A stretch of DNA of 39,843 nucleotides from a virus. A program made the translations under genes and the position numbers. The DNA is taken from IMG/VR virus record IMGVR_UViG_3300029893_000027; one strand, 5' to 3'. The notes beneath the pieces were generated by a model. The model did not search any database, was not told the origin of the DNA, and worked only from the letters and a program-made list of their open reading frames with translations. This document shows positions 2,735-36,668 of the stretch, in pieces. Position 1 is the stretch's first letter; the number at the start of each line of letters is the position of its first letter.

Positions 2735-2924
2735 CTTTATCACCTCCTTTTTTATTTTTCATTGTTCAAACGTAAAATTTGGATAAATAAATTGACTATC
2801 AAATGATGAAATATTGAAAAATTGGTTGATTGAGGGAAATTCAGGCAAAAAAATCAAGCGGAAACAGGGCAAGGTTGAAAGATTATTGATGGGTTGATAG
2901 TTTAGTATGGGCTGGAATTTCAAC

Positions 2925-2984
2925 ATTTCAATTTCGATTTCCATTTCGATTTCAATTTCGATTTCCATTTCGATTTCGATTTCC
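2925..2984. repeat. Hexanucleotide-phased tandem array (ATTTCN)x10 with a 24-nt super-unit
   Basis: Reads atttca atttcg atttcc atttcg atttca atttcg atttcc atttcg atttcg atttcc with no phase slip. It lies in the predicted 5' leader of the leftward transcript. Confidence 0.9.
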
Positions 2985-3020
2985 AATATTGATTGGCGGG
3001 TCTGATTTTTGATTGAGCGT

Positions 3021-3049
3021 ATTATACCATAAAAGAAATGATTTGTCAA
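3021..3049 (-). promoter_or_regulatory. Near-consensus sigma70 promoter for the leftward arm (TTGACA-17-TGgTATAAT)
   Basis: On the minus strand, TTGACA is at 3049-3044, followed by a 17-nt spacer and TATAAT at 3026-3021 with an extended -10 TG. Confidence 0.75.
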
Positions 3050-3073
3050 GTAAAAAATTTAAAATTATTTGGA

Positions 3074-3180
3074 TTTTGAAATTGTGAAATTACATAAATT
3101 GGAAGGAAAAAATTTTTGTATTGTGGGAATGTGAAATTATGTAAATTGAATTTTGAAATTATGAAATTATATAAATTGAA
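3074..3180. repeat. Three copies of a 19-29-nt iteron-like unit (TTTTGAAATT)RTGAAATTAYRTAAATTGR
   Basis: Copies at 3074-3102, 3131-3150 and 3151-3180, aligned by eye with a few mismatches. Confidence 0.8.
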
Positions 3181-3240
3181 TTGAATTGAGTTGAATTGAA
3201 TTGAGTTGAGTTGAGATAAGTTGAGCTGAATTAAGCTTAA
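3176..3240. repeat. Pentanucleotide-phased array (TTGAR)x13
   Basis: Reads ttgaa ttgaa ttgag ttgaa ttgaa ttgag ttgag ttgag ataag ttgag ctgaa ttaag cttaa. The phase is kept throughout. Confidence 0.85.
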
Positions 3241-3299
3241 ATTACATTCGAATGAACAACGCAAATGTTGTGATTGTCGAATATGACTTATTCAATAAT

Positions 3300-3335
3300 T
3301 TATGCAAAAACTTATGCAAAAACTTATGCAAAGAC
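3300..3335. repeat. 12-nt tandem repeat x3 (TTATGCAAAAAC)
   Basis: Reads ttatgcaaaaac ttatgcaaaaac ttatgcaaagac. Confidence 0.9.
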
Positions 3336-3346
3336 ATTGTTGAAGA

Positions 3347-3472
3347 TGTGGCAAAAATTATGGAACTAACCTGTTGCAATTGTTGGGGTTGTGGCAAAAA
3401 TATGGAAAACGGATGTTGATGAAATTGTTGCAAATGATTGAAATTATTGAAGATGTGGCGAAAATATGGAAA
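3347..3472. repeat. Three dispersed 18-19-nt iterons TGTGGCRAAAA(T)TATGGAA
   Basis: Copies at 3347-3365, 3390-3407 and 3454-3471. Copies 1 and 3 share a longer flank, ATTRTTGAAGATGTGGC. Confidence 0.8.
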
Positions 3473-3475
3473 TAT

Positions 3476-3643
3476 GGAATATGGAAGGGATATATATAAA
3501 GAAAGGAAGAAAGAAAGGAAAGTCTCTTCTTTCTTTTTTCTATATATACAAAAAAAAATAAAAAAAAAAGAAAAAAAAAGAAAACTATAGAGAACCCTGG
3601 AGAGATAAATATATATATATGTCCCTTCCATACGCCATATTCC
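3476..3643. repeat. Imperfect inverted repeat enclosing a polypurine hairpin and A9-T-A10-G-A9 tracts (candidate DNA-unwinding element)
   Basis: The left arm ggaatatggaagggatatatata (3476-3498) pairs with tatatatatgtcccttccatacgccatattcc (3611-3643). Inside are AAGAAAGAA/TTCTTTCTT and poly-A runs at 3550-3584. Confidence 0.7.
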
Positions 3644-3761
3644 ATAATTTTATCATTTTATAGTCGATAAACTCAAAAATTTCTGAATTTTTAAAGGCAA
3701 AAAATTCTTGTATCTCATTTAGTTGCATAAGTTATCGCCCTAACGAATGTGAATTTTTTAC

Positions 3762-3790
3762 TTGACAAGATTTCGAAGATGTGCTATATT
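3762..3790 (+). promoter_or_regulatory. Sigma70-like promoter (TTGACA-17-TGcTATATT) for the isolated early gene
   Basis: TTGACA at 3762-3767, a 17-nt spacer, then TATATT at 3785-3790 with an extended -10 TG. It lies 58 nt upstream of the 3848 ATG. Confidence 0.7.
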
Positions 3791-3847
3791 TACAATAGAG
3801 AAAAATATGGAAGAAGTAAAAATTAAAAGAAAGGAGGCGAAGAAGAA

Positions 3848-4108
3848 ATGTTTAAAATCACAAAGAAAGATTTAGAAGAAGAGATAAAGAGAGTCAATGA
3901 GCTTCTTGAAAAAAAGAACTTAATCATGACATCAACTTCTGGATATAATTACAGAACGCTTGAGCTTTCAACCAAGGATGGACGTTACCTGGGCGTGATG
4001 ATGAACCGTCTTACAGAAAAAGACGCTTACTATACGCTGGTTACTATTCGCCATGTCTTGTACGAAATAGAAGCTCAAGAAATTGAGAATCCAACCTTTG
4101 CTGTCTGA
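3848..4108 (+). CDS. 86-aa hypothetical early protein (isolated gene with its own promoter)
   Basis: ATG preceded by AAAGGAGGCGAAG. Repeat-rich noncoding DNA flanks it on both sides. Confidence 0.75.
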   Translation: MFKITKKDLEEEIKRVNELLEKKNLIMTSTSGYNYRTLELSTKDGRYLGVMMNRLTEKDAYYTLVTIRHVLYEIEAQEIENPTFAV

Positions 4109-4122
4109 ATCCCAATGTCCCT

Positions 4123-4162
4123 CTGAAGTGAGTGCCATCATCCTGAAGTGAATGCCATCATT
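4123..4162. repeat. 20-nt tandem duplication
   Basis: ctgaagtgagtgccatcatc is followed by ctgaagtgaatgccatcatt, directly after the 3848..4108 stop. Confidence 0.85.
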
Positions 4163-4260
4163 CATTGAGTAAGTGATGATATTCTTCCCTTTACAAATTC
4201 TTAATTGCTAACTATTGTTAAACTATTCGTTATTAAAATCATCATCAATCAAATCAATGA

Positions 4261-4280
4261 CCCCTGCCCTCCCCCCTCCC
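4261..4280 (-). other. Canonical G-quadruplex motif (minus strand GGGAGGGGGGAGGGCAGGGG), C-tract on the plus strand
   Basis: The plus strand reads cccctgccctcccccctccc. That gives four or more G3+ runs with 1-2-nt loops in an otherwise AT-rich region. Confidence 0.6.
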
Positions 4281-4304
4281 TTTGAAAATTTAATTAAGCA
4301 TCTC

Positions 4305-4510
4305 TTTCAAACTGCGACCCATTTTTTAACTCATCCATTTTCGAACTCATCCATTTTCAAACTCACTCACATAATTTCAAACTCACTCATTTTCAGACTC
4401 ACTCATTTTCAGACTCACATAATTTCAAACTCACACTTCATTTAATTTCAAACTCACTCATATAATTTCAGACTTTAGAATTATGAAAGTTTCAGACGCA
4501 ATTTTCAAAC
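4305..4510. repeat. About 12 copies of TTTCARAC(TCAC) at 16-22-nt spacing, upstream of the structural-operon promoter
   Basis: Examples: attttcgaactcatcc, attttcaaactcactc, attttcagactcactc (x2), atttcaaactcac... The plus strand here is nearly G-free. Confidence 0.85.
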
Positions 4511-4561
4511 TTCATTTGTGTCTGCACTGCACTGCGCAGTCATATCTTGTGTTTTGTTATA

Positions 4562-4589
4562 TTGACAAATCTAAATATTGTGGTATAAT
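4562..4589 (+). promoter_or_regulatory. Near-consensus sigma70 promoter (TTGACA-16-TGgTATAAT) for the packaging/structural operon
   Basis: TTGACA at 4562-4567, a 16-nt spacer, then TATAAT at 4584-4589 with an extended -10 TG. Confidence 0.75.
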
Positions 4590-4654
4590 ATAGTGCAGCA
4601 AAAAGCAAGTGGCAAATAGCAAAATTTGCAAAACAAATATTTACCTTTTTCAAA

Positions 4655-33469: not shown

Positions 33470-33994
33470 TTATTCCTCAAACTTTGTAACTATAAACCTT
33501 CCCATCAAAGGACGATAATCACCAATGCCTATCCTTTGACCTGCATAATCAAGTATCTCCTTTAACTTATCTTTTCCAATTATTTCCTCATCATACTCAA
33601 TTTCAAACTCCAACGCCCACTTGTCAAAACGTGGTCTGGCACGCATTATTCTCATCCTTTGTATAACTACAGGTCTACGGTCAATTACCCATTCCTGGCA
33701 GATATGGGGTATCGCATCTGGAGTAACGAAAACACTACTTTTTATAACTGAGGAATAAGTTAGTTTTCTTTCAAACTGAAATCTTGCTCCAGCTTTAATT
33801 AAAGCTCCTAAAATGTGAGTGGCAGGCTGATAAATAGTTCCTTTCTCGTCTTTATACAAACTCTTCTCACATTCCTCTCTTGCAGGAAACTCTTTTATTT
33901 TCTTCTTTGACTTATGCTCTGGATTTTCTTCTTCTGGAAAACGATGCTGTAATAATGGTGCTATACCCTCAATTTTAACTTTTACTTTTTTCAT
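33470..33994 (-). CDS. Hypothetical replication-module protein (174 aa)
   Basis: SD AAAGGAGGAAAAA. Motifs GIAPLLQHRF and GIGDYRPLMGRF are present. No family was recognised by eye. Confidence 0.7.
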   Translation of the reverse strand: MKKVKVKIEGIAPLLQHRFPEEENPEHKSKKKIKEFPAREECEKSLYKDEKGTIYQPATHILGALIKAGARFQFERKLTYSSVIKSSVFVTPDAIPHICQEWVIDRRPVVIQRMRIMRARPRFDKWALEFEIEYDEEIIGKDKLKEILDYAGQRIGIGDYRPLMGRFIVTKFEE

Positions 33995-34018
33995 TTTTTC
34001 CTCCTTTCTTTGTATTGT

Positions 34019-34258
34019 CCCTACCCTACCTTACCTTACCAAACCAGACCCAACCGAACCACACCAAACCGCACAACACCTCACCCCGACACACCTAACC
34101 AAACCGCACCTTACTTTGCCAAACCGTGCCCCACCAATCCAAACCAAACATCACCAAACCTCACCCTACCTGACCGAACCAAACCAAAGCCTACCTCACC
34201 AAACCTTGCCCGACCCAACCATACATCGCCTTACCTAACCTCGCCGTGCCTCACCTCC
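34019..34258. repeat. 48-unit pentanucleotide-phased array: CCNNA on +, TNNGG on the transcribed minus strand
   Basis: Parsed base by base from 34019. CC occupies positions 1-2 in 42 of 48 units and A occupies position 5 in 39 of 48. There are no indels over 240 nt, and the plus strand is almost G-free. Confidence 0.95.
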
Positions 34259-34386
34259 TTTTCATCCTCAACTTTAAACAATCCTTGATGACCGCAAGGA
34301 GAAGCAGTCGCTCTAATTACATCTATATCTGTCTCATCGTTGTATCCCCACTTACAACCGCAAACGATACAAGTGCAAATTATCAT
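34231..34386 (-). CDS. 51-aa zinc-ribbon-like protein (CTCIVCGC...CGH)
   Basis: ATG (MIICTCIVCGCKW...) after GGGAGTGAGAAA. Its last 9 codons run into the pentamer array. Confidence 0.5.
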   Translation of the reverse strand: MIICTCIVCGCKWGYNDETDIDVIRATASPCGHQGLFKVEDEKEVRHGEVR

Positions 34387-34415
34387 TTTCTCACTCCCTT
34401 TTTTCACGCATTTCC

Positions 34416-36668
34416 TCACCTTTTGTGCATTTCGTCCCAGTTTTTACCTGTCTTAATCTCAACAGGGATTGTGAATGTCTTGTTGTTTATTGTGAGAGGT
34501 ATTTTAAATATTTCTTTAATTGCATCAGCATACATGTTTACTTCTCCTTCCGCACATTGCACCACAAAGGCATCATGTATTTGCAACATAATCTCCGCAT
34601 TTGGTATTGATTTCTTTAAATTGATGATTGCCAAATTTAAGACATCAGCAACTGTGGATTGCGGTATGTAGCTATATGCCTCACGAAACAATTGCTCTCC
34701 CCAACGACCAAAGAATAGTCTTTTTCTTCCCATTGGTGTTTCCATTATTCGTGTTTTAGAAAGATGTGCTTGTATTTGTAATTGCCACATTTTGATTTTT
34801 GGGAATGTGTCAAAATACTTCTGCAATACCTCCCTTGCTTTGCTTTCTTTGATTTGTGCGTGGTAAGCAAATGTTCTTACACCAATTCCGTAATTACTTC
34901 CGTGCACTAATCTTTTTGCCAGCTCTCTATCAACACCAATCCATTCTGCAACTTGTGCGTGTATGTCACCTCCTTTCTCGAACAAATTAATTAATTTCTC
35001 TTCTCCTGAGAGGTATGCGACAATTCTTGCTTCGGCTTGCGACAAATCTGCCTCAATAAACACCTTTCCTTCGTCAGCGACAAACATCTTTCTGCAAATG
35101 CCTTTTGGTATATTTTGTAAATTTGACCCAGTGCCAAACACACTTTCTCTACTGGATAGTCTTCCTGTTTTTGTTCCACCGATGAGATATGAGCATCTTA
35201 TCCTCTCTCCTTCATCTGTCAAATATGTTCCTAACAGCTTCAGGTTCTTTCTTATTGTTAAGATTAAATCAAATACCTCATTTGGATATTGTGCTGCAAG
35301 TGCTTCAATTGCTTCTTCATCTGTTGTTTCTGTTCCTCGCACTCTGCTAATGCGAGGAGGCAATTTCATCTCTTCATAAAATAATTGTTTAAGTTGCTTT
35401 GGTGACACCACATTTACCTGTCTTCCTACCAATTCATTCAATCTGTTTTGTGTTTCTGCAACTTTTCTCAAGCATTCCTCATTTGCTTGTAGCCTTACGA
35501 GATTATCAACTTTCACTCCTCTTATTTGCATCTCAGTTAATATTGGTATCAATGGATGCACCAGTTTGTAGTAAAAGTCATACACACCAAACTCTTTCAT
35601 TTCCTTCTCAATTGCAATTGCAGTTTCAAATGCAATGCAGGCATCCATTGCATTATACTTCCAAAAATCTACTGCTGAGCCAGTTTTTGCCCAATGTTTA
35701 TAGTAAGGTTGACGAGTATAAATACTGCATAATACTTCTAATCCTTTAGGCAATTCTGGGTAAATTGTGTGGTGAGCGCACATTGTGTCCATCACCAAAT
35801 TTTTGGTATTGATGTAAGGAGGATTGATGGCAAATATGACACAATCAAATTGAGCATTTTGTGCAATCTTCTCAATTTTCTCATCTTCCATCAACTTTTT
35901 TATTTCATTCATTACCGCAATTTCTTCTTCTATTGTTGGCCAGTAGTTGATGGTCTCTGTTCCTTTGCTAAATGTGAAGGGAATGCAGATGGCAGAAAAA
36001 GGCGAATCAGCAAATGCGATGGCAGTTATTATAGTTCCTTCTGTTTCAATATCAAATGCAATTTTTTTACATTTTTGCAACCTAACCAATTCACACATCA
36101 CTTGTTCAAATGTTGGTGCAAGAATGAAGTCCCTATTTGGTATATTACATTTTGGTGTCTCACTTTCTTCCTTCACTTTTCGCAGGTCGAATAAAACAAG
36201 TGGTGCAAAATCCCATTGACGCATAATCATTGCAGGGTGCACTGTGGGAATAACTTTGACATTAAGACGATGATGCCAAAGAATACTGCCACGCCAATCA
36301 GTAATATTTCTGTGGGAGAATAGTGCCATCAATGCTTCATTTCCTAAAGCACAGACAACATTTGGTCTGCACTTTTTGATGTCTTCCAACAAATATTTTC
36401 TTCCTTCAATTAATTCTGGCTTTGGTATATGCATCTGTTTGTCAACATAGAAGTGAGCAAAGTTATTCGTTGGCGGACGAATTCTCATTACATTTGCAAG
36501 ACGACATTCACTTCTCACTATACCTACATCCATCAATAACTTATCAAGTATTCGTCCTGCACTTCCAACAAAGGGTCGTCCTTGTGCTTCTTCTTCTGCG
36601 CCAGGTGCTTCCCCTACTATGTAAATCTTTGCGTCAGTGGGACCTTCAAATGGAACTATTGTATTCAT
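34416..36668 (-). CDS. polA: Family A DNA polymerase with 3'-5' exonuclease and an N-terminal family-4 UDG-like domain
   Basis: The UDG4 motifs GEAPGAEEEAQGRPFVGSAGRIL and VHPAMIMR lie in residues 1-165. Exo I is IAFDIETEG. The Pol motifs are A (EADLSQAEARIVA), B (RELAKRLVHGSNYG) and C (QIHDAFV). Confidence 0.9.
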   Translation of the reverse strand: MNTIVPFEGPTDAKIYIVGEAPGAEEEAQGRPFVGSAGRILDKLLMDVGIVRSECRLANVMRIRPPTNNFAHFYVDKQMHIPKPELIEGRKYLLEDIKKCRPNVVCALGNEALMALFSHRNITDWRGSILWHHRLNVKVIPTVHPAMIMRQWDFAPLVLFDLRKVKEESETPKCNIPNRDFILAPTFEQVMCELVRLQKCKKIAFDIETEGTIITAIAFADSPFSAICIPFTFSKGTETINYWPTIEEEIAVMNEIKKLMEDEKIEKIAQNAQFDCVIFAINPPYINTKNLVMDTMCAHHTIYPELPKGLEVLCSIYTRQPYYKHWAKTGSAVDFWKYNAMDACIAFETAIAIEKEMKEFGVYDFYYKLVHPLIPILTEMQIRGVKVDNLVRLQANEECLRKVAETQNRLNELVGRQVNVVSPKQLKQLFYEEMKLPPRISRVRGTETTDEEAIEALAAQYPNEVFDLILTIRKNLKLLGTYLTDEGERIRCSYLIGGTKTGRLSSRESVFGTGSNLQNIPKGICRKMFVADEGKVFIEADLSQAEARIVAYLSGEEKLINLFEKGGDIHAQVAEWIGVDRELAKRLVHGSNYGIGVRTFAYHAQIKESKAREVLQKYFDTFPKIKMWQLQIQAHLSKTRIMETPMGRKRLFFGRWGEQLFREAYSYIPQSTVADVLNLAIINLKKSIPNAEIMLQIHDAFVVQCAEGEVNMYADAIKEIFKIPLTINNKTFTIPVEIKTGKNWDEMHKR

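Follow-up and report, generated by a model that had tools for sequence, protein, structure and literature searches.

VIPR (Viral Interference Programmable Repeat) was described in 2026 by a single group in two bioRxiv papers, both preprints (10.64898/2026.04.26.720920, 10.64898/2026.04.26.720927). Its protein component, Vipr, is a small (~20 kDa) phage-encoded RAMP that polymerises on guide RNAs (vrRNAs) built of YNNGG repeats (10.64898/2026.04.26.720920). Cryo-EM resolved a right-handed filament that holds one protomer for each repeat; in it, the Vipr of phage SUSP1 keeps GGY flipped out and gripped by H17, R138, D177, W178 and R179 and presents the NN dinucleotides (10.64898/2026.04.26.720927). 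Pairing to the target skips one base per repeat (NNx, '1-nt skip'), usually at the wobble position of a codon; Vipr binding represses transcription and serves to silence competing phages, with satellites, prophages and other VIPRs as targets in nature (10.64898/2026.04.26.720920). A type II vrRNA comprises 9-16 repeats with conserved GGY and hypervariable NN, closed by an invariable structured 3' tail; degenerate repeat units are common in the arrays, some Viprs are stand-alone genes, and the vrRNA upstream of the SUSP1 genes is a functional guide (10.64898/2026.04.26.720920). The same preprint numbers the VIPR types I-VII and allows for other architectures, namely staggered arrays, a single vrRNA and ribozyme-interspersed arrays (10.64898/2026.04.26.720920).

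The DNA analysed here (the window, 39,843 nucleotides, IMG/VR record IMGVR_UViG_3300029893_000027) encodes terS, terL, portal, major head and tail proteins together with a phage replication module, and by this gene content it represents a tailed phage of ~40 kb, an environmental phage that is apparently complete. We assign the locus around 34019-34258 to a VIPR system of this phage, with a probability of roughly 0.88. Our confidence in the detailed mechanism is lower than in the VIPR identity and can be called moderate, because the mechanism is carried over by homology from preprints. The locus consists of the following features, and all genes flanking the array lie on the minus strand.

34019..34258, minus strand: vrRNA repeat array, 48 slip-free 5-nt units, YNNGG on the minus strand
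34019..34040, minus strand: gene-proximal (3') array end, GGTAAGGTAAGGTAGGGTAGGG, carrying the block-end motif of the clade; candidate short 3' handle
33995..34018, minus strand: leader from the array to the vipr start codon, 24 nt, with the ribosome-binding site AAAGGAGG
33470..33994, minus strand: vipr gene, 174 aa, assigned by homology to SUSP1 Vipr
34231..34419, minus strand: Zn-ribbon ORF, 62 aa, from the ORF list; flanks the array
34416-36668, minus strand: PolA with a UDG-like domain, assigned by domain match
overlapping vipr, minus strand: primase/helicase-like gene, 394 aa, from the ORF list and domain searches

Cut every 5 nt from 34019, the plus strand of the array reads as 48 CCNNA units with 0 indels. 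C occupies position 1 in 46/48 units and position 2 in 44/48, with CC in register in 42/48; position 5 holds A in 39/48 and G in 7, and positions 3-4 are unconstrained. The counts given in the first-pass annotation (48 units, 42/48 CC, 39/48 A, no indel) were thereby reproduced exactly. Viewed on the minus strand, the two G positions are occupied in 46/48 and 44/48 units, Y in 46/48 (T 39, C 7), and NN is free. The first unit, CCTCC (GGAGG on the minus strand), is a boundary unit, and 47 well-formed units stand in the GGYNN register between 34021 and 34255. Six of these (GGYNN units 7, 14, 22, 29, 34 and 37) bear a single G substitution, which spaces the degenerate units roughly every 7 units; one unit has a purine at the Y position. 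The plus strand of the array contains C115 A76 T32 G17, corresponding to 48% C and to 7% G as against 20.6% G across the window. Among the NN dinucleotides TT is over-represented (12/47), and part of the array may for this reason be filler or decayed.

The periodicity far exceeds chance. Spectral power at period 5, calculated over 240-nt segments, was 19.9 in the array, whereas the window as a whole had a median of 0.6 and its 99th percentile stood at 3.8; peaks appeared only at the array and at ~3100-3240 (5.1). The pattern (CCNNA)x7 with at most 2 mismatches matched 22 times, every time within the array, and had 0 matches across 100 dinucleotide-preserving shuffles. The spectrum and the shuffle, both proposed by the first-pass annotation as checks on its array, thus came out in its favour. 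Runs of at least 4 GGYNN units were absent elsewhere in the window, and no hairpin, pseudoknot or internal spacer was found within the 48 units. The self-fold of the array RNA was not significant (z = -1.35), as expected for a strand that is coated by protein. A search of the whole window against Rfam at gathering thresholds gave no match, including no hammerhead or other ribozyme, which places the array outside the curated RNA families. No convincing dedicated promoter or terminator for the array was detected, and blastn of the locus against GenBank phages returned no match.

At its 5' end the array overlaps the neighbouring Zn-ribbon ORF (34231-34419), whose final ~9 codons (KEVRHGEVR*) are read from its first units; the frame continues into the array because a stop codon is first supplied by a GGTAA unit. 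This limited intrusion of the upstream minus-strand ORF had been described beforehand and was seen again. The 62-aa product has no family match, and tblastn found no homologue of it beside vipr among the array loci listed (at least 120, see below). We regard it as a flanking gene rather than an established part of the VIPR system. The 394-aa primase/helicase-like gene likewise lacks homologues beside vipr among these loci, and the neighbours of vipr in close relatives are unrelated to either gene. Both were considered as candidates for a vap accessory gene, and with no conservation there neither stands out as one. The adjoining PolA carries an N-terminal domain of the uracil-DNA-glycosylase superfamily (PF03167, E = 1.8e-26), followed by 3'-5' exonuclease and polymerase domains.

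The partner of the array is indicated by searches in both directions. Viral contigs were scanned blindly for the DNA pattern (GGNNN)x11+GG, that is, without any protein information, which gave at least 120 loci. The matches listed are mostly diverse arrays with invariant GG, C or T at position 3, free positions 4-5 and several blocks per locus; the remainder are a few poly-G tracts and true microsatellites. When twelve proteins of the window were compared with these loci by tblastn, the 174-aa protein was the only one recurring beside arrays among the matches listed (~67-70 loci, against only 2 for PolA). Of the 205 arrays situated no more than 1.5 kb from vipr in the loci listed, 204 share its strand; 59 arrays are upstream and 146 downstream of vipr, and the median block has 14 units. 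Retrieval in the reverse direction, through the protein (17-sequence profile, 21 loci), revealed same-strand arrays within ~1 kb in 19/21 loci, with blocks of 6-35 units, and no opposite-strand array in any of the 21. The two exceptions (L145 and L159) have degenerate tracts instead of GG-phased arrays. In an IMG/VR contig (L001), four same-strand slip-free GGTNN blocks with quite different NN precede a homologue of the 174-aa protein with 64% identity. The neighbours of vipr in close relatives are sugar-modifying enzymes, radical-SAM/glycosyltransferase genes or YqaJ/RecT. Since the linkage recurs amid such unrelated genes, the array belongs with vipr and not with the replication operon. The co-orientation also suggests that it is the G strand that functions: the minus-strand reading as (UNNGG)n, put forward in the first-pass annotation, is supported in this respect, and its transcription is a supposition that we take from the preprints.

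The two exceptional loci deserve a remark of their own. They encode Vipr homologues of 48% and 36% identity (L145 3300-3530 and L159 3040-3420, respectively) and carry no GG-phased array. L145 features period-5 tracts with a single G (GTTGAGTTGAGTTCAGCCGAG...), each of which is followed by a hairpin and TAGGG; these tracts resemble the alternative YNNNG-type repeats of the VIPR paper (10.64898/2026.04.26.720920).

By its sequence the 174-aa protein is a Vipr homologue and a stand-alone RAMP. It aligns over its full length with SUSP1 ALH47069.1 (31.6% identity, E = 2e-17, tblastn; SUSP1 = KT454805.2), and in the SUSP1 genome YNNGG tracts accompany the gene for ALH47069.1, one of them upstream and three downstream, in full agreement with the published locus. 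A profile of 63 family sequences matched PDB 36pp_D, 'SUSP1 Vipr protein', with E = 7.1e-24 over residues 1-172. The contact residues H17, R138, D177, W178 and R179 of SUSP1 correspond to H17, R120, D159, Y160 and R161 in the window protein. In an alignment of 32 family members the R, D and R positions of this GGY contact are invariant, the H position is occupied by H in 27/32 and N in 5/32, and the aromatic position by Y, F or W in 30/32. The protein is predicted to adopt a RAMP fold: the AlphaFold2 model (pLDDT 88.8, pTM 0.82) has its best Foldseek matches in the PDB with Csm3, Cmr4 and type VII Cas7 (E from 3.6e-6, probability 1.0, TM 0.5-0.6), and it corresponds to a minimal RAMP with RRM core, thumb and the G-loop GIGDYRPLMGRF. 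Homologues occur in 136 phage records, mostly of Felixounavirus-like coliphages. Pfam returned nothing for the protein, and PHROGs only phrog_4652, 'unknown function'. The first-pass annotation had suggested a ring or filament protein with a 5-nt footprint and had named the product of 33470..33994 among the candidate binders. Both proposals were essentially right, as the named protein is the Vipr homologue and the footprint agrees with the published one protomer per YNNGG repeat.

Comparison of close relatives indicates which part of the repeat is maintained. Two loci with Vipr proteins of 90% amino acid identity (L157 and L160) share length, phase and end of the array and differ in most NN; in a second pair (L161 and L162, 94%) the first guide is common, the other guides are different and the tail is identical. 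Hence NN turns over between close relatives while GGY and phase persist, and the conservation of phase that the first-pass annotation proposed to look for in relatives is indeed found. The meaning of the variable positions had been missed there: according to the VIPR preprints, these positions make up a gapped guide for base pairing with DNA. The L161/L162 pair by itself clearly illustrates how guides are replaced in nature in a cassette-like manner. In the region 3600-4010 of both loci the first vrRNA is exactly identical, and all guides are capped by a tail of the form GGGCTAATACAGCGTTAT-hairpin-AGCGAAGTAAAG.

From the two preprints we infer RNA expression, filament assembly, 1-nt skip pairing and transcriptional silencing for the present locus as well. 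The minus strand of 34019-34258 would be transcribed into a YNNGG-repeat RNA, probably as part of the replication-operon transcript or else as the leader that precedes vipr on its mRNA. The 174-aa Vipr presumably polymerises on this RNA with one protomer per 5-nt repeat, so that each pair of neighbouring protomers would flip out and lock one GGY by means of H17, R120, D159, Y160 and R161. The NN dinucleotides would stay exposed and act as a gapped guide. The filament could then bind double-stranded DNA in the reading NNxNNx..., with one base skipped per repeat, and block transcription of the target, presumably that of a competing phage, satellite or prophage.

The array stops 24 nt short of the vipr start codon and shares the strand of the gene, in agreement with a VIPR locus, and it departs from the definition of type II (9-16 repeats and a structured 3' tail). 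This argues against type II and not against VIPR, because other architectures are allowed by the paper. Of those published, the 'staggered' arrays (fig. S18 of 10.64898/2026.04.26.720920), long contiguous arrays that reportedly give rise to several vrRNAs without intervening tails, fit the 48 uninterrupted units best. In the array of a relative with 80% Vipr identity (L126), which counts 37 units, TAGGG|TAAGG occurs every 7-12 units; this arrangement fits the staggered arrays mentioned in the preprint, and the junction could mark the vrRNA boundaries. The window array differs from that of L126 in lacking regular internal TAGGG|TAAGG junctions, as TAGGG is present only in unit 19 and at the end. 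The end itself follows a common pattern. Blocks of the clade (Vipr identity of at least 45%; L001, L123, L126, L127 and L144 compared with the window) terminate in ...TAAGG TAGGG followed by T/A-rich sequence, and the window array has this TAAGG-TAGGG motif once only. We consider 34019..34040 a candidate short 3' handle that would replace the structured tail.

How the long block is used allows for different proposals. The array could give rise to one ~240-nt vrRNA, corresponding to a ~47-protomer filament and a target of ~140 bp, or else to a tail-less precursor that is cut by a ruler-like mechanism; we think it rather doubtful that either of the two applies. A filament of ~47 protomers would by far exceed the 9-16 repeats of the vrRNAs characterised to date, and the 48-unit block exceeds every block of the protein-anchored sample (6-35 units). 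Ruler-like cutting, if any, would perhaps take place at the six degenerate units. In the case of a long guide as well as of a precursor, the array RNA may also serve as a leader through which the vipr mRNA is autoregulated.

A target was searched for with the published 1-nt skip, the NN dinucleotides being joined by one wildcard base. Such exact seeds miss the matches of at least 80% NN that the VIPR authors accepted in their mismatch-tolerant nhmmer search (10.64898/2026.04.26.720920), and the negative results are therefore weak evidence. Within the window the best self-target scored 16/20, compared with 15-17/20 for shuffled guides, and so showed no excess. Four exact 9-unit seeds yielded 1, 1, 2 and 1 independent matches in IMG/VR, none of which extended past the seed; two 10-unit seeds had 0 matches in the metagenome collection, one seed matched 596 Gb of genomes once, which is about the chance expectation, and 1.2 Mb of retrieved loci contained no match that reached 19/24. 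These searches thus produced no natural target beyond the chance level. Guide units 27-35 match, in codon-wobble register, a ParB-like gene (L130 3185-3210, KKALYVGEV) and a 2103-aa tail-fibre-like gene (L131 3926-3951, NNAFYVGDV) of unrelated IMG/VR phages. Neither is put forward as a target, as the proteins are unrelated, the matches do not extend and their number equals the chance expectation. A match to a methyltransferase (L133-L141) lies out of wobble register.

The strongest competing explanation accepts the array as a VIPR array and lets it act mainly in cis. As the 5' leader of the vipr mRNA it would be coated by Vipr, which would autoregulate expression of vipr and of the downstream primase-like gene or would titrate Vipr, part of the array being filler. 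The position of the array speaks for such a function: it adjoins the vipr ribosome-binding site, ends 24 nt before the start codon, and the upstream arrays of relatives likewise stop 10-25 nt before the ribosome-binding site. The 48 units without internal tails, the 12/47 units of TT type and the failure of the exact-seed searches to deliver a target point in the same direction. On the other hand, diverse NN are needless for an autoregulatory track, 146 of the 205 arrays of the loci listed are downstream of vipr and cannot serve as a leader, the upstream vrRNA of SUSP1 is a functional guide, and the missing target counts for little in a search by exact seeds. A role mainly in cis is improbable in our opinion.

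Much less probable still is a G-rich replication element, in which two-tetrad G-quadruplexes or a stable R-loop would prime or position PolA or the primase at a secondary origin. The array is situated between PolA and the primase/helicase-like gene, its G-rich strand is the non-template strand, and the GG-N3 spacing would presumably suit two-tetrad G-quadruplexes. However, neither these structures nor R-loops need a strict 3-nt spacer and a pyrimidine at position 3, and the arrays travel with vipr and not with replication genes: among the loci listed, PolA adjoins an array in no more than 2, whereas vipr does so in ~67-70. Least credible of all is a function of the plus strand, either as a C-rich transcript that serves as a large Rho rut site in antisense or read-through termination or as ORF 34010-34288 coding for a P-N-x-T-x pentapeptide-repeat protein: the strand does contain 48% C and 7% G and has one frame open over 92 codons, but one open frame of three has a probability of ~0.2 by unit composition (estimated from the unit counts), AT-rich spacers interrupt the arrays of relatives, the co-orientation with vipr is 204:1 among the loci listed, and the Vipr structure explains the conservation of GGY residue by residue (10.64898/2026.04.26.720927). 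The G-quadruplexes, the Rho site and the origin or packaging signal proposed earlier for the array gained no support and are unnecessary, given that the array accompanies vipr into unrelated gene neighbourhoods; the claim that the array is non-coding was borne out.

The plus-strand ORF 34010-34288 is nevertheless mechanically present, and a similar one is found at 2769-2939 of L125. These spurious ORFs inside vrRNA arrays, which gene callers also produce, encode P-N-x-T-x-like pentapeptide repeats and exist because the C-rich strand rarely has stop codons. They are an annotation artefact to be expected at VIPR loci.

A second period-5 tract, (AATTG/AGTTG)x13 at 3172-3240, has a single G per unit and an almost invariant 'NN', and was rejected as a VIPR array on these grounds; 1.37 Mb of related loci contained no similar tract. 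The first-pass annotation had expected a period-5 peak here too (at 3176-3240); the tract turned out to be a low-diversity single-G repeat, an element of another kind than the array. It lies in the region where the leftward and the rightward gene blocks diverge (2900-4650), which is packed with repeats and may be an origin, an iteron or a regulatory region. Further features of this region are:

2925-2983: (ATTTCG/ATTTCA)x10 repeat
4305-4474: about nine copies of TTTCAAACTCAC(T/C)CA
~4563-4591: near-consensus promoter TTGACA-N17-TATAAT, upstream of terS

The first-pass annotation knew of no described phage element with this architecture, a statement overtaken by the VIPR preprints (10.64898/2026.04.26.720920, 10.64898/2026.04.26.720927). 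Because the class was described in 2026, the biology is no longer surprising, and what is noteworthy here is the tail-less 48-unit architecture. The window adds a compact phage from the environment whose Vipr shares no more than ~32% identity with the Vipr characterised so far, and its array is the long, tail-less extreme among the sampled architectures. It is thus a useful test case for the definition of vrRNA ends, for the maximal length of the filament and for the regulation of vipr by an upstream array. As this case shows, a period-5 analysis of raw DNA is by itself enough to find VIPR systems. They represent a newly reported, CRISPR-related type of DNA recognition by gapped guides that has been proposed to be ancestral to the CRISPR RAMP effectors, and its very small size makes Vipr attractive as a programmable DNA binder.

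Of the known systems, the type II VIPR of SUSP1 (vipr ALH47069.1, vap1 and four vrRNAs; PDB 36pp) is closest to the window locus. Both are phage-encoded and have homologous Vipr proteins that keep H17, R, D, an aromatic residue and R in the GGY pocket, and in both the YNNGG repeats with variable NN are on the vipr strand and directly flank vipr. SUSP1 has four separate vrRNAs of ~100 nt with ~12-13 repeats each, a 5' hairpin and a 3' pseudoknot tail, one of them upstream and three downstream of the genes. The window, by contrast, has a single uninterrupted 48-unit array, located only upstream, without hairpin or pseudoknot and with just the short TAAGG-TAGGG end; no vap1 homologue is evident, and the locus lies inside a replication operon.

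The Cas7 family of Class 1 CRISPR systems (Csm3, Cmr4, type VII Cas7) shares with Vipr the fold, consisting of RRM core, G-loop and thumb, and both form helical filaments on a guide RNA in which the thumb periodically breaks the duplex of guide and target. Sequence identity between Vipr and Cas7 is only 8-15%. VIPR has a period of 5 nt, sequesters three guide bases and skips one target base; in CRISPR the period is 6 nt and one base is flipped. The window differs from CRISPR in having a single small protein, no adaptation genes and no CRISPR repeats or spacers. Surveys of tandem repeats and ORFs revealed no direct-repeat/spacer array in the window, and there was no other cas-like match beside the single RAMP gene. 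Membership in Class 1 CRISPR-Cas was ruled out, as a repeat-spacer array and multiple cas genes are missing.

The analogies drawn in the first-pass annotation to TRAP and to TMV are formal only. TRAP on (G/U)AG and Vipr have in common that an oligomer reads a short single-stranded RNA motif at a fixed period of ~5 nt. TRAP, however, is a closed 11-mer ring of unrelated fold and Vipr an open RAMP filament; the spacers of TRAP sites carry no information, whereas in VIPR the spacer NN is the payload, and TRAP regulates a host operon in cis whereas VIPR targets DNA.
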